Below, in pieces: positions 22,686 through 47,596 of a stretch of 64,000 bases of DNA. Source of the stretch: a phage; the NCBI GenBank assembly GCA_022979955.1, contig GCA_022979955.1_3642.1. One strand, given 5' to 3'. Every line of letters starts with the position of its first letter. Position 1 is the first letter of the stretch. A program made the position numbers and the translations under genes. The notes below the pieces were generated by a model. It saw only the letters and a program-made list of their open reading frames with translations. It was not told the DNA's origin and made no database searches.

Positions 22686-25049
22686 ATGAGTATGTGGTCT
22701 TTCGATTTTGAGTCATCCGGTTTGCTGGAAGACCCAGATCTTTATTATCACTGCGGTCTGTTTAAAGAGCTGAATAAGAACCGTTTTATGCTGTTCCTTC
22801 CTCTAAATGACCGCACACACTACTCCGAGGAGGATATAGAAAAGGCTAAGAACTTCATTCTGGCAAAGAAAACTCTTTATAAAGATTTTGAAGTTCGCAT
22901 AGCAGATTTTTCGGAGTTGGAAGGTTGGCTTACAGGCAATTCTGACTGGTCACCAACAGCTTTGAACTGCCATAACTGCTACAGTTATGACTTTATGCTG
23001 ATGGAAAGATTATCCGGTATTCATTTTGACATGTTCCGTGATCCTAAATGCATGGGGACTATCAACGACCACCAGGTTAACCTGTTTGATACGTTGGCGA
23101 TGAGTCGAATCTTGTGGCCTGATCGCCCTTTACCAAAAGGTTGTCCGGACTCTGTATTCAACCCGGTCACTAAGAAAATGCAGCCTGTTGGTCCTCACGG
23201 CCTTATGGCATGGGGCTATGCTCTTGGTAACCAGAAAGTTCAAATTGATGACTGGCGCGATCTTCCGTTATGGAAGTATGTGGATCGTGTATTTGAGGAC
23301 GTTATCATCCAGGAGCTGCTCTGGAAAGAACTGGTAGCGGAATCAAAAGGTGTATTCTACGGCAAGTCTGACATGCAGAACTTTATGTACGATCCTGCCA
23401 AAGAGAAGCCGAAAGGGTTCAAGAAGATCACCTGGAAGAACGCACTACGCCGAGGCATGCTGCAGCACTTCCTGATGGAGCTGCAGGCCCGTCAGGGTGT
23501 GTATTTTGACATAGATGGAGCTATTGCTTTACGTGACCGTTGTGATGCGTGGATGAAAGAAATAGCTGATCGTGTTGAACCACAACTACCTTTAAAAGAG
23601 CTGTCAATGTCTCAGCGGCCCAAGTTCCCTGAAAAGCCGTTTAACCAAGATGGGACAATCTCCAATAATGGTTGGAAATGGTTAAAAGATAAGCTTGGCT
23701 ATCCTGTAGACATGAGCGCTTTAGAGTTCAAAGCCCCGCCTAAGCGAGCATTTACCTCCACAGGAGATGTCAGTAAGATGGGGATAAAATGGTGTGAAGA
23801 GATGGGCTGCAAAGACCCTGATAAGATGGCTGATTTCTTGAGAGGCTATATTAAGGGCACTTCCACACCACAACCTTTACCTAAAGAGCTGATGGATCAG
23901 GCAATAAGTGATCTACAGCAGAAGCGAATGCCGGACTGCAAGATACCTATGAAAATCAGCAATCAGGACGACATTAAGCGATACCTGATCAGTGCTGGTT
24001 GGCTTCCGACAATGTGGAGAACTAAGGATGTAACTAAAGACAGCAAGAAGAAAGCTCTACCTGATGCAGATGTTGATGCACGAGTATATGCATATATGGA
24101 CGAGCTTTTAGAGTCAGAGTATTGTGACCTGATTATCAACTTCTGGAACAAAACTGATGCTAAGTTCCAGACAACCGTGCACAAGTTCCGAAGCTTTCCT
24201 AACTCCGAAAGGATTAAAAAGGAAGTATTCGGGAAAATACGTAGAAAAGCTAGGGCACTTATTACTTCTCCGCAACTGAAAGATACGTTTGGACACCTAT
24301 GCCCTAATCTTGAAAAATTGAACGGAGAGATGGCTAAAGATATCGTCTTGTGGTTATCATTGCGAAACCGCAGATCGGTCCTTGATCCAATCAAGGAGGA
24401 TAAGGTTGATACTGGTCTTCTTAATCACCCACGTTTGAAGATTGACCATAAGCTTCCTGCTAAAAGTTCTGGATTAACAAACACTTCCCGACAGAAACAC
24501 AGTATTTGTGCAAACATGCCTAAACCATCTCCTAAAGTGGTTATGGGTAAAGAGATGCGTAGTCTGTGGGGTGTTCCTCCAGGATACTTTGAGATCGGTA
24601 TTGACGGGTCCAACTTAGAGCAGCTTATCGGGGCTTGGGGTGCCTTTGAGTTCGACAACGGCCTGTATTACGATGTTGTAAGTAACGGAGACGCACACCA
24701 AAACAATGCTGAGGCATATACAAAAGTAGCAGGCAGAGAGGTGTCCCGTAACGACGGTAAACCTATCACGTATGGGGTTATGTACGGAGCACAAAAAGAT
24801 AAAGTTGCAGATATGCTGGACATCTCTCCAGAGTTGGGACAAAGGGTAATCGATGCGCTTTGGGATGCCAACCCTGGTCTTAAGGGCCGTAAAGAGGATC
24901 TGGAGAAATTCTGGGAAGCAACGGGTAAGAAGTTTATCTACTCTTTTGATGGTCATGCCATCTGGACCAGATCTAAACACTCTTTACTTAATGCATACCA
25001 ACAGAATGGTGGTGCATCGCTGTGTGACTTGGTTGGGATACTCATGCAC
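22686..25049 (+). CDS. DNA polymerase family A (T7/Pol I-like), exon 1
   Basis: N-terminal 3'-5' exo motif SFDFESSGL...HCG; motif A-like IDGSNLEQL; motif B RNDGKPITYGVMYGA; reading frame continues to a stop at 25115 inside the putative intron. Confidence 0.7.
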
Positions 25050-25385
25050 CACCAAATGGTGAAGCGTGGGTGGTACGATGAAGGTGTTCGCCGTATTATT
25101 TATTACCATAAATAACATTGTGGCTTCATAGAGTAATCTATGTCGAATAACCTCTTTAACTGCGGGAAGCCTAAACCTTATGGCAAGGTAATCCGCAACG
25201 AAGCGCTCAAAAGAGCGAACGCTCAGAGGCCATTCCGAAAGGAAGTAGACCAGCAAGTGCGGTCGAAATGGGAGGATTCCTGTGGTTGCTTATCATAGGA
25301 ATATGAGATGGTCCGATCCTACGTGAAAACGTATGGCTATGCACGTAATGGTGCGGGGTAGCTTAACGACCTACCTGAACTATTG
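25050..25385 (+). ncRNA. putative group I self-splicing intron, ORF-less
   Basis: 336-nt insert between in-frame polymerase segments; P-like AACUGCGGGAAG (25159-25170), Q-like AAUCCGCAAC (25190-25199), R-like GUAGACCA (25245-25252), S-like GAGAUGGUCC (25305-25314), GNRA-capped hairpin UUCC-GAAA-GGAA; ends in G at 25385; exact junctions uncertain. Confidence 0.5.
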
Positions 25386-25739
25386 GATGAGTACCAACTT
25401 CAAGTGCCTGACACGCCTAAGTATAAGACTGTGTACACCTTCGACACAATTGAAGAACTGGAAGCATTTAAGGCAGAACAGGAGGCCAAACTTCATGTGT
25501 TCGACGGTCATAAGTACAAAAAGGCACGCAAAGATGAGGACGGAAACGAAGTAGTTGACAGGGACGGAAACACGGTGTACGATCCTATCCTGAACGATGA
25601 CGGAAAGCTTGAGCTTATCTGGAGCCCTGTGGGTGAAATGGTGGTGCATTGCTTCTGGCAAGCTTCTAAAATGATGGGAGTCCCGTTCCAGATCACAGGT
25701 GAATACCTGTGTGGTCGTAATTGGGGTGATTGTCACTAA
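25386..25739 (+). CDS. DNA polymerase family A, exon 2 (C-terminal segment)
   Basis: Begins DEYQLQV, which joined to ...GILMH gives motif C LMHDEYQ; ends GRNWGDCH like the T7 DNA polymerase C-terminus as recalled; no SD upstream. Confidence 0.55.
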   Translation, partial: DEYQLQVPDTPKYKTVYTFDTIEELEAFKAEQEAKLHVFDGHKYKKARKDEDGNEVVDRDGNTVYDPILNDDGKLELIWSPVGEMVVHCFWQASKMMGVPFQITGEYLCGRNWGDCH

Positions 25740-33178: not shown

Positions 33179-33368
33179 GCTTAAATCTGCATGGAACATC
33201 GCTGTGGGGGACGAGATCCGTATCCCAGGTGGAAAGACCATTATGAAGATATCTCGTATTGAGTACGAAGGTGACCGTGTATTCCACATCTTCGCAGAAG
33301 ATGGTCGAGAAATTTATATACAGGCAGGTTCTCACATCTATATCCGTAAGAAAGGGGACGACAAATGA
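33165..33368 (+). CDS. hypothetical protein
   Basis: 67-aa ORF overlapping upstream stop. Confidence 0.4.
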   Translation: MQMFKLKSAWNIAVGDEIRIPGGKTIMKISRIEYEGDRVFHIFAEDGREIYIQAGSHIYIRKKGDDK

Positions 33369-33697
33369 CAGAGATCATCGTTTCAACTGCAGGGTATGTA
33401 TTCCTGACAATCATTGCGCTGGCTATTCTGGTGGCGGTGTATGGATTTGTTATCCTGCCTATTCTTGAGACATTTAGTTTGTGTCGGTGTTGGAGAAAAG
33501 CTTACGGACCACAACCGTGGAAAGACTGGTTCCATTTGGTGCGTATAGCGTTCTCTTATGCCTATGACCACTCTAGCAGTGCATGCGTAACCGGGTACCA
33601 TGCCTACAACTGGAACTGGGAAGGGCTGGGGAGATGGACTGTTACAAAAACTATACCCTTACGGTTGTACAAAGGAAAGAACACACTGGGAGCCTGA
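33365..33697 (+). CDS. small membrane protein
   Basis: ATGA overlap; N-terminal hydrophobic helix. Confidence 0.45.
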   Translation: MTEIIVSTAGYVFLTIIALAILVAVYGFVILPILETFSLCRCWRKAYGPQPWKDWFHLVRIAFSYAYDHSSSACVTGYHAYNWNWEGLGRWTVTKTIPLRLYKGKNTLGA

Positions 33698-33740
33698 TAT
33701 TTTAAGTTATCAGGTTGCCAGAGATCAGGAGGATTTCTAA

Positions 33741-34190
33741 AATGGATTTCCTCCTTTTGATATTTCACCGGGCCGGATATTTTAAAATTCTTAGAAAATC
33801 AGAAAATGGATCGAAAACTAAAATGGATTTTTCAGAGTAGGCGCGACAAGCTGAATAACTCATCCTATCGTTTGCACCATATTCCAGGCCACCATTATAG
33901 ATTTCCCACACATGCTAACCTCTCTCTACTAGAACTTCCTCCACTTACCCTTGACCTTCTATGGTAACAATCTAACCGCTATCTTGAAGTTGCGGTGCAG
34001 CTTTCCAGGTACTCGATCTACTTTTCATTTCAGGGCTTGGATTTTCTGAAAATTTTTCTCGATAAATTTCTCAGTACTCGATCTGTTTTTCGTTTTCTGA
34101 ATCGGATTTTCTGGAAATCGTTCCGGCTCTCAACCTGAAATTTTGGGGACGAAATCGATTTTTCGTTTTCAGAAATGGATTTTTAAAATT
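33741..34190. repeat. iteron-like short direct repeat cluster
   Basis: Recurring AAAATGGAT(T), GGATTTTCTG, GTACTCGATCT and TTTTCGTTTTC units in an ORF-free, AT-rich stretch. Confidence 0.5.
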
Positions 34191-34331
34191 TCTATATGGG
34201 AATATTTTAGTGGATACTATTTTATAGTAAATTGTTACGGAGGGTAATTAGCGTGCTAATTAAATTTATTAAATGCGAGGAGTTCTCATTTAGAATTTTG
34301 AATGATAATCATTCTCGTTTGCAGAATAATG

Positions 34332-34354
34332 GGCAGGCCCGGTGATTGTCTCCC
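34332..34354 (+). repeat. 23-nt repeat GGCAGGCCCGGTGATTGTCTCCC, copy 1
   Basis: Exact reverse-complement copy at 43757-43779; degenerate copy at 34471-34488. Confidence 0.6.
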
Positions 34355-34470
34355 GGCCCCTGCTGCCCCGGCTTGTTATTATAGTATCACACAGGACAAA
34401 GAAAGCAAGGATTTTTTGCATAAACTTTTAAATGATAATGATAACCGTTCTCATTTTATGCAGCGCCCAT

Positions 34471-34488
34471 CCCCGGTGGTTGTCTCCC
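34471..34488 (+). repeat. degenerate copy 2 of the 23-nt repeat
   Basis: CCCCGGTGGTTGTCTCCC preceded by the same AATGATAA...TTCTC context as copy 1. Confidence 0.5.
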
Positions 34489-34711
34489 CCGTCACCGGTG
34501 CCTGCCGTCCTTTCGATAGGTATATTGTGCCACCTGGCGGGGCCGCTGTCAACACTTTTCAAAAAATTTTTCTAACCTGATGCGCTAACCGCTGCAACCT
34601 GGCGGGGCCAGCCTGGCAGGACCTAACTGACCAGGTAGGAGAGAATGAAGGCTTGTAAACCTGGTGGGCCTATGCTATAGGAGAGGTAACAATTGAAGAG
34701 GAGGTACAAAA

Positions 34712-34888
34712 ATGGAAGGTAATATGATCCCCCTGGAAAATGTAGCTATTAATGACGCTGAGGCTATCGCCCTGGTTGAAAAGGCTATGGCGGGAGCGTT
34801 GGAATATAAAGAAGAGTACGAAAAAATGATGGTTAACCTGGCAGGGGCGGCGGCTGGAGAATTCCGCCCAAAAAATAATTTTAACTAA
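34712..34888 (+). CDS. small hypothetical protein (58 aa)
   Basis: ATG after GAGGAGG; first gene of the small-gene array. Confidence 0.4.
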   Translation: MEGNMIPLENVAINDAEAIALVEKAMAGALEYKEEYEKMMVNLAGAAAGEFRPKNNFN

Positions 34889-34891
34889 TGG

Positions 34892-34920
34892 TTGACAGCT
34901 CGGACAGTTCTTGTTATTCT
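34892..34920 (+). promoter_or_regulatory. sigma70-like promoter
   Basis: TTGACA-17-TATTCT. Confidence 0.5.
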
Positions 34921-43699: not shown

Positions 43700-43728
43700 T
43701 TGACTTGTTCGGCCCCTTTTGCTATTCT
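43700..43728 (+). promoter_or_regulatory. sigma70-like promoter
   Basis: TTGACT-17-TATTCT, immediately upstream of repeat copy 3. Confidence 0.45.
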
Positions 43729-43756
43729 TATTAAACGGGCGGCACTTGGGAACAGG

Positions 43757-43779
43757 GGGAGACAATCACCGGGCCTGCC
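43757..43779 (-). repeat. 23-nt repeat, copy 3 (inverted)
   Basis: GGGAGACAATCACCGGGCCTGCC is the exact reverse complement of 34332-34354. Confidence 0.6.
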
Positions 43780-45047: not shown

Positions 45048-45065
45048 TTTTTTAACTGAATTATC

Positions 45066-45092
45066 AAGGGGCTTAGGCCCCTTTCTTTTTGT
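45066..45092 (+). terminator. rho-independent terminator
   Basis: AAGGGGC-TTAG-GCCCCTT hairpin followed by TCTTTTTGT. Confidence 0.65.
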
Positions 45093-45689
45093 CTGCTCTT
45101 CTCCTACCATAAACGGCCCTACCTGGCAAGTGGAATAATTGACTAGCCATCAATCCCACATACTGTACAAATATACATGGAAAATAACTATTGCATAATT
45201 TTTCATTGTGTGGTAGCAAGTCCATTTTTACCCGTTTTCTCTCCCAAAAGTGCACGTAATGCCGCTATTGCACAAATTTTAACCTGATGCACATCTCTAA
45301 TATCTTGTCAACAACTAAAAATCTTTATAAGTCATACACTTACACAGCATCGAAAGCGTGTTCTACGCGAAAAATCGAGTATAACTATAGCCGCCAGATC
45401 TCAGAATTCACGTACGCACGCCATTCTATAGCCTGCAAAGTATTTATTCCAACCACAGAATAACGGAATAGTCAATACCTGCATAAAATAATTATTCGTG
45501 TAAACTGCATAACATAAATCAGCTCAGGTGTCAACATTTTTCGTAAACAGTTCGAAATTGTCACGGTAAGTTATTATACACAGAGAAATCTTTAGTCGTC
45601 TAATGGTTACTATACATTACTAATCTGACTGGAATCATTAGATGACTAATAGAAAGATAAGAAATAATTAACAGTCTAATTATATTAAC

Positions 45690-45970
45690 GATAACAATAA
45701 CAGCGGTTAAAGTCATGGCGCGACGGAGTCGCGACATAATAACACCGAGTAACCCTCACCCCCGTGAGCGTTGCGAATGTTATTATGCCATGACTAAATC
45801 ATTTCAACACGTAACTATAGGCATAACAACATTCCCTCGGTGTTATTATGTCGCTAGTTATTATATAACTGTTAACAATAACGCCTCGGGAATAGTTCTG
45901 CCTGCACGATGTTTATAACAGCAAGTTATGATCAACATTTCACAGATTATAATAACAGCGGTTAAAGTCA
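45690..45970. repeat. direct-repeat pair flanking a 19-bp inverted repeat
   Basis: AATAACAGCGGTTAAAGTCA exact at 45696-45715 and 45951-45970; inside, GCGACATAATAACACCGAG (45731-45749) and its reverse complement (45836-45854). Confidence 0.6.
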
Positions 45971-46597
45971 GGCGTAGAAACAGTGGAAGTGTAAACAGTC
46001 AATCATGTAAATGATAAGTATGTGAACAGTTATCCATGTAAACTATTAGACATGTAAACAATCAGGTGTGCAAAAGTGTCAAGGGTGTCACCATTGTGTC
46101 TAAAGTGTCGTATGTCATCAGTATGTCAGACAAGTTTTTCTCCTCTTTGTCAAGTGCTGCATGAAAAATTTACAATCTTGTATGGTAGCATTTTTGCGGT
46201 CCTGTTTACATTCAGAGATGTATGTATAATCCTTGTTGTGTGGGCGTTTAGACGTCTAGACGGTCAGAAGTCTGCAGGTCAATATCTAATCTATTGGCTG
46301 CTAACTATATCCCACACAAATAGTAAGAAATATAATTGTTATATGCGTAAACAGTAACCCATGTTATCAATCCCTGTATGGATCGCCAGTGGTGCGCATA
46401 ATGGGTATTATGTTAAATTGCCCGTAATGATAATGGTTCTCACAATGATATGTATTCTCATTCCCCCACACAAAATAGATTGCAAATGTTGTGCCACTAT
46501 GTGAACGGCCTCACCTATTAATTTGCCTCACTGCCTCGATATTTGAGAATTATTATAAGAATGAGAAGTATTCCCATTTCGTCCGCCTGGCAGCGCT

Positions 46598-46657
46598 CCT
46601 GTAGGTCCTGCAAGGACTCTAGCTGAAAGCTAGACCCTTCGGGCCTCCCTGTAGGTC
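46598..46657. other. three consecutive tetraloop hairpins bracketed by CCTGTAGGTC direct repeats
   Basis: GTCCT-GCA-AGGAC, CTAGC-TGAAA-GCTAG, CCC-TTCG-GGG; CCTGTAGGTC at 46598 and 46648. Confidence 0.4.
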
Positions 46658-46705
46658 AGGTCAAAATCGTGGTAGAATTGGGCCTATTCAGATATTTCTG
46701 GCTGG

Positions 46706-46900
46706 CTCTTCAGGTCTGTGTGGGAAAAGCCAACCTCTCCGGCGGGGCAGGGGGAGGTAAATTAAAAAATTTACGGGGTATATGAAGCGCTCTTCAGGTA
46801 AGGCATGTACTATGGGATGAAACCCTCTTCAGGCAATGATATTTGTGGGTGTGATATTTGCTGGAAAGCCAGATATGACGGGACTCCCGGCGGGGCAGGG
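46706..46900. repeat. degenerate tandem unit CTCTTCAGG...CCGGCGGGGCAGGG
   Basis: CTCTTCAGG at 46706, 46790, 46825 (also 47238, 47886); CCGGCGGGGCAGGG at 46739 and 46887. Confidence 0.55.
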
Positions 46901-47596
46901 GTAGTACAGACAGGGAAAATATGAGAATGTAGTTGGGGAAATTGATCAGACAGGTAGAGTATGGAATATGTTACAAGTATGTTAAATATGGAGGTTGAAT
47001 ATCTGTAGGATTTGTGTGTAAAATCAAAGACTTAAGGGGTGTTGTGGTATTTTCTATAAATAATTCAAGTTTAATAGGCAATATTTGTCTCTATCCGCTT
47101 TGTGTGGTAAACAGATTCAGATTAGATTGGTTTACAAGTGTATACATAATATACAAATTAAAGATACAAGAAACCCCCCTCCCCCTTCGGCTACCATTCA
47201 CCTTTTCCTCTGACTGGTACTTAAACACTTATTCAGACTCTTCAGGTTATCACCCATATATCATATGGCAGTGACTGGTGTCCTCCGGCCCCTCTTTCGT
47301 CACCCGTCCGCTTCGCCATGCTAATGCCATAGCTAATGGTTCGGTTGTTCACCCTGTTCACTCAGGTGTATCTCTATACCCCTTCAAACCGAAGAGAACA
47401 GAAAACCCGAATTACTCGGTAAAAGAAAAGAGAAGAACTTAATTTTATCAGGATAGGCAAGAATGTCAAGGCATGACTGCTCACTAAACAAGCAAACAGT
47501 CATGTGTGGGAGGTAAGTGATTGTGGTGGTAGGAAATTTAGTTGAAAGATGTGTTATAGGTGCTTCCAGCACTTTAGCCTGGCAGCTAATTGTGTG

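Follow-up and report, generated by a model that had tools for sequence, protein, structure and literature searches.

A conserved repeat-rich gap in rV5-like phages: a candidate Fur-gated control region bordering a terminal small-gene block

The T7 promoters phi1.1A and phi1.1B are arranged in tandem, and HK022 put and lambda nut are short conserved elements that sit just downstream of several early promoters with differing directions. In T4, an A+T-rich unwinding element lies downstream of the promoter at oriF and oriG, and at oriE direct repeats accompany an early promoter (PMC3016281). In T5, the injection stop signal is placed at 7.9% of the genome, in a large untranslated region that contains repeats, inverted repeats, palindromes, and DnaA boxes and is conserved among relatives (bioRxiv 10.1101/866236). 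On the host side, the Fur operator of ryhB is a 25-bit site that is shifted with Fur in gel assays (PMC2189734).

We analyzed a 64-kb window (the whole stretch of DNA under study) from an rV5-like E. coli phage (Vequintavirus), in which a cluster of repeats sits in a ~1-kb gap, 33698–34700, without a conserved ORF. As predicted from sequence, this gap resembles T4 oriF/oriG and the T7 primary origin in having a host-RNAP-type promoter with an AT-rich tract downstream, and T4 oriE in placing direct repeats beside a promoter. It departs from the T4 origins in that its repeats are composite modules of 65–73 nt rather than evenly spaced 12-nt iterons, and from both the T4 and T7 origins in carrying putative Fur-type operators between promoters and AT-rich tract and in having promoters that oppose the flanking genes. 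Like the T5 signal, the gap is a large untranslated stretch rich in repeats and palindromes, with a structure kept among relatives; it lies ~8% of the way in from the left end, borders a block of small, presumably early, genes on its inner side, and carries candidate host-protein boxes. Unlike in T5, these are Fur-like rather than DnaA boxes, and the gap is not part of a long terminal repeat, the terminal repeat here being 459 bp. The searched literature contained no origin, transcript map, link to Fur, Fur-binding data, or genetic data for these phages.

Repeats, composition, and conservation of the gap

The initial annotation had described at least four families of direct repeats, and each of the four it listed was recovered in its place within 33730–34260. 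The features of the left part of the gap are as follows.

33696, 33759, and 33776 (33696–33783), plus strand: GATATTT(T/C) direct repeats
33728–33758, plus strand: terminator-like hairpin read from the sequence, GGAGGA, 15-nt loop, TCCTCC, then TTTT
33739, 33803, and 33820, plus strand: AAAATGGAT, with no other copies in the 64 kb
33838–34005: variable spacer, mean pairwise identity 0.65–0.74
34009 and 34074: GTACTCGATCT
34039 and 34104: GGATTTTCTG
34087 and 34160: TTTTCGTTTTC
34009–34073, 34074–34150, and 34151–34200, plus strand: composite repeats R1, R2, and R3
34048–34058 and 34184–34192: A/T tracts of the modules, GAAAATTTTTC and TAAAATTTC
34151–34270: AT-rich tract, 25% GC, overlapping R3
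34245–34262: palindrome TAATTAGCGTGCTAATTA within the AT-rich tract

The GGATTTTCTG, GTACTCGATCT, and TTTTCGTTTTC families are not independent, being sub-parts of the three composite repeats. The interval 33730–34260 contains 22 repeated 9-mers; doublet-preserving shuffles averaged 1.4 and never exceeded 10. Among 531-nt tiles of the window, the one starting at 33656 has the highest repeat density (the median tile has 1), and the homologous tile ranks first in the complete 137-kb Gotham genome. The AT-rich segment, originally placed at 34200–34300, exists but sits slightly to the left, at 34151–34270; this is the lowest GC content of any 120 nt in the window, and the second least stable 60-mer lies inside it. 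Both the repeats and the AT-rich tract are real and far beyond chance. In 9 of 14 loci from several genera, an AT-rich minimum lies 80–150 nt to the left of the core Fur-like box.

The modules are about 65–75 nt long, with start-to-start spacings of 65 and 73 nt, and each reads in the order box A, a T-rich stretch (TTTTCRTTTYC), box B (GGATTTT), and an A/T tract. Box A is GTACTCGATC in R1 and R2 and GAAATCGAT in R3, with box B 21–22 nt past it. Module identity is 0.82–0.975 among Vequintaviruses. The three-module layout, with a fixed 21-nt gap from CTCGATC to (T/G)ATT(T/C)T, is also present in Seuna-, Certre-, and Mydovirus and in a 121-kb relative, and two 147–149-kb relatives carry ACTYGAR variants of box A; CTCGATC boxes are absent in ukendt (Phapecoctavirus). 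In the complete genomes of Gotham and SSE121 the modules are confined to this region, a single location that led us to reject them as a dispersed promoter class.

The hairpin at 33728–33758 probably ends the upstream plus-strand operon, whose last gene spans 33365–33697, and it carries the first AAAATGGAT copy in its loop. Among 12 relatives, slur12 has both arms changed with pairing kept (GGAGAA/TTCTCC), and three read GGGGGA/TCCTCC, which keeps a G-U pair. A terminator scan missed the hairpin because its loop exceeds 8 nt. The first GATATTT(T/C) copy overlaps the TGA stop codon of the upstream gene, and in Seuna-, Certre-, Mydo-, and Phapecoctavirus and other relatives two to five GATATTT(G/T) copies lie past the stop codon of the upstream gene; three GATATTTG copies lie in the terminus region, at 46538, 46838, and 46853. 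Triplets related to AAAATGGAT, (A)AAATGG(A/T)TTT, are present in other genera. Mean pairwise identity in the block 33719–33837 is 0.84–0.97 among 12 Vequintaviruses.

The original statement that the cluster holds no ORF is true in substance: short ORFs are present (33715–33840, 33806–33967, 33995–34138, and 34302–34580) but are annotated inconsistently in relatives. Among 12 relatives, 33838–34014 contains 1- and 2-nt indels, which together with the low identity of 33838–34005 argue against the ORFs that some relatives annotate there. We rejected a coding reading of 33742–33840, 33806–33967, 34302–34580, and minus-strand 34290–34421 given inconsistent annotation, frameshifting indels, and substitutions not concentrated at third codon positions; the 34302 ORF also has no ribosome-binding site. 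The 33742 ORF has a good ribosome-binding site, and its first 29 codons are possibly coding. Several gap ORFs annotated in public records are probably spurious.

The best Rfam match in the gap scored 21 bits (E = 0.4), with nothing at or near gathering score, four other-genus loci gave no Rfam match, and a tRNA scan of the gap found none. The window as a whole gave one Rfam match that reached gathering score, a group I intron at 25.1 kb. A stable structured RNA was rejected, as predicted leader folds are no better than those of shuffles and the conserved block of other genera shows little covariation. A GGA-rich protein-sponge RNA was likewise set aside, with GGA exceeding the tile mean only mildly; GGAT shows strand-specific enrichment. 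The phiTE pseudo-ToxI (type III antitoxin-like) is no homologue, as it occupies a different locus near tRNAs and the terminase gene.

Among 12 Vequintaviruses, the conserved parts of the gap are conserved at least as well as the flanking coding sequence. The segment 34284–34552 is nearly invariant among Vequintaviruses, and 34284–34313 is invariant in 12 relatives. The layout is common to at least six genera in two subfamilies and is found in the same order in Vequinta-, Seuna-, Certre-, Mydo-, and Phapecoctavirus and further relatives. Its shared parts are the GATATTT and AAAATGGAT repeats, three modules, the AT-rich tract, one to four Fur-box-like palindromes, and two opposite-strand sigma70-type promoters. 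A protein search of IMG/VR added only two close loci, and a pattern search 15. Judged by sequence comparison, the gap is a real, widely conserved control region.

Predicted promoters, Fur-box-like palindromes, and the partner region at the genome end

The right part of the gap carries two predicted promoter-leader units and three palindromes, and a third unit lies elsewhere in the window.

34271–34291: Fur-box-like palindrome 1, 16/21 against AAATGAGAATCATTCTCATTT
34300–34320: Fur-box-like palindrome 2, 18/21, inside a 30-bp nnGAAT hexamer array at 34298–34327
34408–34403 and 34383–34378, minus strand: predicted sigma70-type promoter P_L1, -35 TTGCTT, 19-nt spacer, -10 TATAAT
Complement of 34354–34332, minus strand: P_L1 leader motif GGGAGACAATCACCGGGCCTGCC (P_L1 unit 34332–34408)
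34436–34456: Fur-box-like palindrome 3, TAATGATAACCGTTCTCATTT, 17/21, between P_L2 and P_L1
34552–34547 and 34529–34524, minus strand: predicted promoter P_L2, -35 TTGACA, 17-nt spacer with TGn, -10 CACAAT
Complement of 34488–34473, minus strand: second copy of the leader motif (P_L2 unit 34473–34552)
43700–43728 and 43751–43779, plus strand: third promoter-leader unit, TTGACT-17-TATTCT and GGGGGAGACAATCACCGGGCCTGCC, pointing to the genome end

Across 13 sequences, promoter-like sites number 30 on the minus strand, at two conserved offsets, and 8 on the plus strand; shuffles gave a mean of 3 and a maximum of 8. At the P_L1 offset and strand, a promoter-like site is present in 10 of 11 other-genus sequences scanned, with -35 elements TTGCAA, TTGATC, or TTGACC, spacers of 16–19 nt, and -10 elements TATATT, TATTAT, or GATAAT. 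In Vequintavirus, P_L1 combines a weak -35 with a spacer of 19 nt and fell short of the scan threshold. P_L2 scored 10/12 and has a TG extension; its natural -10 variants CAAAAT and CATAAT preserve A at -11 and T at -7, and a promoter at its offset is also present in other genera. The predicted transcription starts are near 34371 and 34517 on the minus strand and, for the third unit, near 43736 on the plus strand. The inverted repeat flanking P_L1 and the leader hairpin have modest covariation support. P_L1 and P_L2 oppose the direction of every neighbouring gene and are the sole features we found that point from the small-gene block into the remaining genome.

The leader motif is preceded by a promoter in all three genomic copies, and Gotham has exactly three genome-wide. 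The third unit is found at a matching position in JeffSchatz, EdH4, and Gotham; its promoter there reads TTGCAA-16-TATACT. The motif is placed similarly to put and nut, with no sequence similarity, no Rfam match, and folds that are not unusually stable; its two variable positions do not co-vary between copies. We had considered a plus-strand, Fur-controlled promoter (TTGAAT-18-CAGAAT, which would enclose a Fur-like box) driving a small RNA that would pair with a target at 43.75 kb. This was dropped: each motif copy follows a promoter of the same sense, so the RNAs would not be complementary. Across genera, the plus-strand element is not consistently -10-like. A ryhB-style minus-strand promoter overlapped by a Fur box was also rejected, being unconserved outside sequences that read GATAATCATTC.

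Against the 19-bp Fur consensus GATAATGATAATCATTATC, the boxes match at 15–16 of 19 positions, and Fur-like matches are more numerous than in Markov simulations. In E. coli, the palindromes match best the Fur operator of the ryhB promoter, with which 21 of 23 nt are identical in the window and in SSE121; the likeness extends to two inverted 7-nt half-sites around one base (TGAGAAT-C-ATTCTCA) and to the nnGAAT hexamer array. The ryhB box overlaps the -35 and -10 elements, whereas the boxes in the gap sit roughly 50–100 nt past the predicted starts of P_L1 and P_L2, and others lie by the genome end. The invariant stretch 34284–34313 falls in the sole part of the gap that blastn detects in other genera, and palindrome 3 is kept in 12 relatives with one position varying C/T.

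The other Fur-like boxes belong to a second non-coding region. We placed the physical end by mapping position 1 of Gotham and EdH4 onto the window; terminal repeats of 458–459 bp have been reported (PMC7471380, PMC6563267).

45030–46587: partner non-coding region, holding the direct terminal repeat at about 46129–46587, with the physical end at 46587
45030, 46425, 46443, and 46559: Fur-like palindromes of the partner region

The arrangement of the partner region is the same in SSE121. Palindromes matching at least 16 of 21 positions fall in the two non-coding regions in 5 of 7 cases in Gotham, 5 of 5 in SSE121, and 5 of 5 in the window. Fur-like boxes are thus almost confined to the gap and the terminus region and bracket the small-gene block; at the terminus one lies 9–29 nt from the physical end. 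The gap itself lies 8–9% into the genome of ~137 kb, at 11.9–12.9 kb from its physical left end.

Candidate functions of the region

We propose tentatively, with a probability of roughly 0.4, that the repeat cluster is the left half of a ~1-kb control region that bounds the terminal small-gene block and produces Fur-gated, outward, non-coding transcription. The terminal block is presumably an early block. P_L2 and P_L1, of host sigma70 type and, we infer, active, would fire on the minus strand, each followed by a leader motif and then a Fur-type operator. Their non-coding transcripts would enter the AT-richest DNA of the window, cross the three modules, and reach the AAAATGGAT and GATATTT repeats, where they would meet the hairpin terminator of the incoming plus-strand operon. 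The short repeats and modules may be arrays of binding sites for some phage or host protein. The palindromes would bind host Fur, which, downstream of the promoters, would probably gate the reach of outward transcription. Together with the Fur-box cluster at the terminus, the element could thereby insulate and regulate the early block, giving the region its putative boundary role. This proposal builds on the repeats, their uniqueness in the genome, the common layout, the strand and position of the promoters, the ryhB match, and the bracketing of the block, all of which sequence comparison establishes. It also agrees with the original suggestion of a multi-site regulatory region, which is supported by the cross-genus layout, the putative binding-site families, the operator-like palindromes, and the two conserved promoters. 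Counting against the proposal are the Fur-like boxes, which lie past the predicted starts and not over the -35 and -10 elements as in classical Fur repression, the weak P_L1 of Vequintavirus, and the leader RNAs, whose folds do not surpass those of shuffles.

We consider it unlikely that the region is instead a transcription-primed origin, in which P_L1 and P_L2 transcripts would form an R-loop in the AT-rich tract and prime the leading strand, the modules would load or position proteins of a T7-like replisome, and Fur would gate firing. The predicted tandem promoters are followed, ~100 nt on, by the least GC-rich tract of the window, and a promoter with an AT tract behind it is what defines T4 oriF/oriG. 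The phage encodes a gp4-like primase-helicase and a family A polymerase, the modules are unique in the genome, and the layout recurs in every genus examined, whereas the initiator-like protein of a rival locus was detected only in Vequintavirus. In addition, the rV5 authors could not place an origin by skew. That locus, at 96.7–97.0 kb in Gotham, is nevertheless a more canonical origin candidate, with four dyad iterons and a 20%-GC tract: four 22-nt repeats with a spacing of 21–22 nt lie at 96,860–96,945, and the locus carries a winged-helix gene in the PHROG 'replication initiation protein'. In rV5 the iteron locus lies near 65.1 kb. At the matching position of SSE121 (138.9–139.6 kb), dyad repeats and an AT-rich tract lie beside a metallophosphoesterase gene.

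Skew also counts against an origin in the gap: at 34 kb neither GC nor AT skew changes sign, and the modest shift there runs opposite to the prediction for a bidirectional origin. DnaA boxes (TTWTNCACA), which iteron origins often though not always have, are absent from 33.7–34.7 kb. The initial annotation had located the cluster just downstream of the helicase, primase, and polymerase genes; this description is loose, as the PIF1 helicase, DnaB-type primase-helicase, and PolA genes lie at 14.8–25.1 kb and ~8 kb of small genes of no known function intervene. Searches of E. coli chromosomes, plasmids, and satellites returned no copies of the region apart from a plasmid record that is in fact an entire phage genome; no copy on a satellite turned up.

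By analogy with T5, the region might act as a DNA-entry checkpoint, which we regard as quite improbable: the left 8–9% of the genome would enter first and pause at the protein-bound repeat region, and transcription from P_L1 and P_L2 or early proteins would then pull in the remaining genome. The position of the repeat-rich gap at 8–9% from the left physical end, the inward orientation of the two promoters, and the Fur-like boxes close to the physical end are all in keeping with this scheme. Against it, the terminal repeat is 459 bp, not ~10 kb, DnaA boxes are missing, and PVP-SE1, phiTE, and CB7 are reported to be circularly permuted, yet their genera keep the region.

A classical iteron origin served by the initiator of an adjacent gene, as in lambda or iteron plasmids, appears very improbable: direct repeats do adjoin an AT-rich tract, but their period of 65–73 nt contrasts with helically phased iterons of 17–22 bp, neighbouring ORFs match only unknown-function PHROGs with no Pfam match where tested, and the one initiator-like gene of the genome has its own iterons elsewhere, with no DnaA boxes here. 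A packaging site or a terminal repeat is equally hard to credit, as are decaying genes whose repeats arose by chance: the gap is repeat-rich and non-coding and has small ORFs annotated in some relatives, but the physical end and the 459-bp repeat map to 46129–46587, which refutes packaging for this genus, the near-invariant blocks and cross-genus layout are incompatible with decay, and the repeat excess far surpasses that of shuffles.

Fur and the biology of the clade

A broader proposal, which we hold as doubtful, is that Vequintavirinae and Stephanstirmvirinae, together a large group of virulent enterobacterial phages, use host Fur as a built-in regulator or structural factor. Fur would then play a part in these phages akin to that proposed for DnaA boxes in the T5 injection stop signal. 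Strong candidate operator clusters bracket the presumed early block and lie in the path of predicted outward transcription by host RNAP, so early development, origin firing, or completion of DNA entry might respond to iron. Their genomes also contain genes for iron-dependent ribonucleotide reductases.

rV5-like phages and their relatives rank among the coliphages most often isolated, and their use in biocontrol and therapy is under study. What had been an unannotated gap can now be described as two putative promoters, three putative operators, and three modules, conserved across genera and matched by a putative partner region where the genome ends. Should the Fur-like boxes prove functional, an entire strictly lytic clade would sense or exploit the iron status of its host, and this would bear on how well the phages work where iron is limited, as in the gut or infected tissue.

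A conserved non-coding region between gene blocks

The repeats at 33730-34260 form a genuine cluster, which belongs to a non-coding control region that is widely conserved and previously undescribed. This region occupies a gap of about 1 kb (33698-34700) in an rV5-like Vequintavirus, whose stretch 33300-34900 shares 94-96% identity with many phages of this kind. We propose that the region is the boundary and control element of a terminal early-gene block, the best-supported account of its sequence, to which we assign a probability of about 0.42. As a separate observation, PLSDB record CP057073.1, a 137,565-bp "plasmid" from an E. coli culture (source: pooled cattle faeces), is the complete genome of an rV5-like phage.

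Features of the gap and the genome end (window coordinates; identity is mean pairwise among 12 Vequintaviruses)
33365-33697, plus: left flanking gene
33719-33837: conserved, identity 0.84-0.97
33728-33758: hairpin GGAGGA ... TCCTCC, then TTTT, far left of the gap
33838-34014: variable spacer, identity 0.65-0.74
34009, 34074, 34151: modules R1, R2 and R3, composite repeats of 65-73 nt
34015-34200: module segment, identity 0.82-0.975
34151-34270: AT-richest 120 nt of the window, 25% GC
34271, 34300, 34436: Fur-like palindromes
34284-34552: near-invariant, identity 0.94-1.0, tighter than the flanking gene
34408-34378, minus: predicted promoter P_L1, TTGCTT-19-TATAAT
34552-34524, minus: predicted promoter P_L2, TTGACA-17-TGnCACAAT, also reported by an automated promoter scan
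34553-34700: variable, with deletions
From 34712, plus: next small ORF
43700-43728, plus: third predicted promoter, sigma70-type, preceding a GC-rich motif
45030, 46425, 46443, 46559: Fur-like palindromes, terminus region
45571-45690: second AT-richest tract
About 46129-46587: direct terminal repeat, physical end at 46587

The gap is thus a mosaic among the 12 Vequintaviruses. All four repeat families described in the initial annotation are present where it placed them, and three are sub-parts of the modules. The repeat region holds 22 repeated 9-mers (shuffles: mean 1.4, maximum 10) and is the top tile for repeat density in both the window and the complete genome of the relative Gotham (MT682716). 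Several families share a strand-specific core, GGAT(T/A)T; GGAT occurs nine times on the plus strand and once on the minus strand of 33700-34300, against a mean of 2.55 and a maximum of 8 in other 601-nt tiles. The AT-rich segment also exists, although it lies slightly left of the stated 34200-34300, at 34151-34270, and the reported lack of an ORF holds in substance: relatives do not agree in annotating the small ORFs of the gap, and indels of lengths not divisible by three break these ORFs.

In other genera, the part of the gap detectable by blastn is limited to about 34265-34417. Loci read directly have an ordered layout common to Seuna-, Certre- and Mydovirus and partial in Phapecoctavirus and other relatives: GATATTT(G/T) repeats from the upstream stop codon onward; (A)AAATGG(A/T)TTT repeats and a spacer; three modules, each with box A, G(G/T)(T/A)CTCGATC, a fixed 21-nt gap, box B, (T/G)ATT(T/C)T, about 10 nt and GAAAAAATTTTT; an AT-rich tract; one to four copies of the 21-bp palindrome AAATGAGAAT-C-ATTCTCATTT; and the GC-rich motif. 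This arrangement supports the multi-site regulatory region initially suggested, in which the modules would act as binding-site arrays. Within them, TCGATAAATT at 34059-34068, which equals the high-affinity H-NS nucleation motif reported by Lang et al. 2007, is kept in 12/12 Vequintaviruses; modules of other genera carry TCGAAAAAATTTTT there.

Predicted promoters, leader motif and probable terminator

The hairpin at 33728-33758, with a compensatory change in one relative, probably terminates the incoming plus-strand operon. Across 13 sequences from several genera, promoter-like sites number 30 on the minus strand, at two fixed offsets, versus 8 on the plus strand (shuffles: mean 3, maximum 8); their hexamers vary between genera yet remain promoter-like, and key bases are kept in natural -10 variants. 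Two tandem predicted promoters therefore oppose all neighbouring genes. Transcription from P_L1 and P_L2 would pass the Fur-like boxes and then enter the AT-rich tract and the modules.

The GC-rich motif has three copies in the window and exactly three in Gotham, each aligned copy lying 3' of a co-oriented sigma70-type promoter. An inverted repeat around it is paired in 70.6% of cells (33-52% in slid controls); covariation support is modest, its score being reached by 3 of 500 shuffles, and predicted fold energies around the motif are unremarkable.

Elsewhere, the predicted P_L2 transcript of Certre-, Mydo-, Seuna- and Phapecoctavirus contains a near-invariant block, ...ACGCCACCCCACGGCGwAAAGGCGGGGCTAACGTACC...GGAAGGTGGATCGCCGGTAG, right of the core box (relatives' loci L012-L017, L019, L020, L025 and L028; e.g. 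L014:2640-2760, minus). An Rfam search gave no match to it and its covariation is weak; the Vequintavirus sequence differs at this place. Within the gap of Mydo- and Seunavirus there is also a minus-strand ORF of 61 aa (L013:2826-3011, BIS47_204; L015:2790-2975); because a leftward promoter of its own and a GAGACAACAACGG leader accompany it, the leftward unit is partly coding in these genera.

Replication origin and other readings

That the cluster is a replication origin appears unlikely. In favour, promoters followed by an AT-rich element reproduce the layout of T4 oriF and oriG, T4 oriE combines direct repeats with an early promoter (PMC3016281), the phage replisome is T7-like, and the modules are unique within the complete Gotham and SSE121 genomes. 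However, the repeats differ from phased 17-22-bp iterons, no neighbouring gene matches an initiator family, the region contains no DnaA box, and the skew keeps its sign at 34 kb. The cluster does lie downstream of the replication genes, but not "just" downstream: PIF1 helicase, DNA methylase, DnaB-type primase-helicase and family A polymerase occupy 14.8-25.1 kb, and about 8 kb of function-unassigned small genes intervene.

A more canonical origin-type locus also exists outside the window. Gotham 96,860-96,945 holds four dyad-symmetric 22-bp repeats at 21-22-bp spacing (GTGTCCGTATCACGGACAGTTA), adjoining the AT-richest 120 nt of that genome (20% GC) and about 70 nt beyond a 116-aa winged-helix gene (Pfam HTH_36; PHROG 12838, 'replication initiation protein'). 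This locus (Gotham 96,700-97,370, L034:700-1370; rV5 about 64,990-65,660) is a textbook iteron-origin candidate; some records label these repeats simply 'repeat_region'. SSE121 (Seunavirus; 138.5-139.7 kb, L039:38500-39700) has, at the corresponding position next to a metallophosphoesterase gene, three copies of dyad repeats ATTCCnnnTTGGGAATAATTAG and a 21.7%-GC tract, coinciding with a divergent transcription switch. The rival locus does not settle the question, because the initiator-like protein was detected solely in Vequintavirus.

Among the replication genes, a group I intron (25100-25335; Rfam RF00028, 64.7 bits) starts where the 809-aa ORF for the family A polymerase ends (ORFs concerned: 22686-25115 and 25383-25739). 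Since the polymerase of the close relative JeffSchatz is uninterrupted at 925 aa, the gene appears to be intron-split here.

A further reading, a DNA-entry checkpoint, draws on an analogy alone, that with the injection stop signal of T5. The T5 signal is a large, untranslated, conserved region rich in repeats and palindromes, 7.9% from the left end (bioRxiv 10.1101/866236); our region lies at 8-9% and likewise borders a block of small genes, but carries Fur-like boxes where T5 has host DnaA boxes. A terminal repeat or packaging site, known RNA families, tRNAs, a ToxI-like locus, and host or plasmid homologues were all excluded.

Putative Fur-type operators and the terminal gene block

The first nucleotide of the Gotham and EdH4 genomes corresponds to window position 46587, so the cluster is not the terminus; direct terminal repeats of Vequintaviruses are 458-459 bp (PMC7471380, PMC6563267). 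The cluster sits 11.9-12.9 kb inside the left genome end, and the array of function-unassigned small genes downstream of the gap spans from it toward that end. The first of these (34712-34888; 58 aa, phrog_21957) has 1-nt indels, conservation of 0.67-0.78 among relatives and no conserved promoter, and is possibly in decay; good conservation of a rightward promoter is first seen with TTGACA-17-TATTCT at 34892-34920. Another large non-coding region dense in repeats, 45060-47500, shares Fur-like palindromes and GATATTTG repeats with the cluster region and has several other repeat families.

At a threshold of at least 16/21, palindromes are almost confined to these two non-coding regions in Gotham (5/7) and SSE121 (5/5); in two genera the small-gene block is therefore flanked on both sides by Fur-like boxes. 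The site at 46559, 9-29 nt from the physical end, is kept in EdH4 and Gotham. Among sequences of E. coli genomes, the consensus fits best the ryhB promoter (21/23 nt shared with the window as well as with SSE121), whose 25-bit site is shifted by Fur in gel assays (PMC2189734). By this resemblance, Fur may bind the phage palindromes.

The proposed control element would combine binding-site repeats in arrays with a terminator, an AT-rich tract and Fur-type operators; its two outward host-type promoters would make non-coding transcripts, and the genome end would hold a matching Fur-box cluster. Gotham (113.9-120.4 kb) and SSE121 (113.2-119.9 kb) have genes for ribonucleotide reductases of class Ia (NrdAB) and class III (NrdDG), which use a di-iron centre and an iron-sulfur cluster, respectively. 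These phage-encoded, iron-dependent enzymes could be one reason for a connection with the iron regulator of the host.
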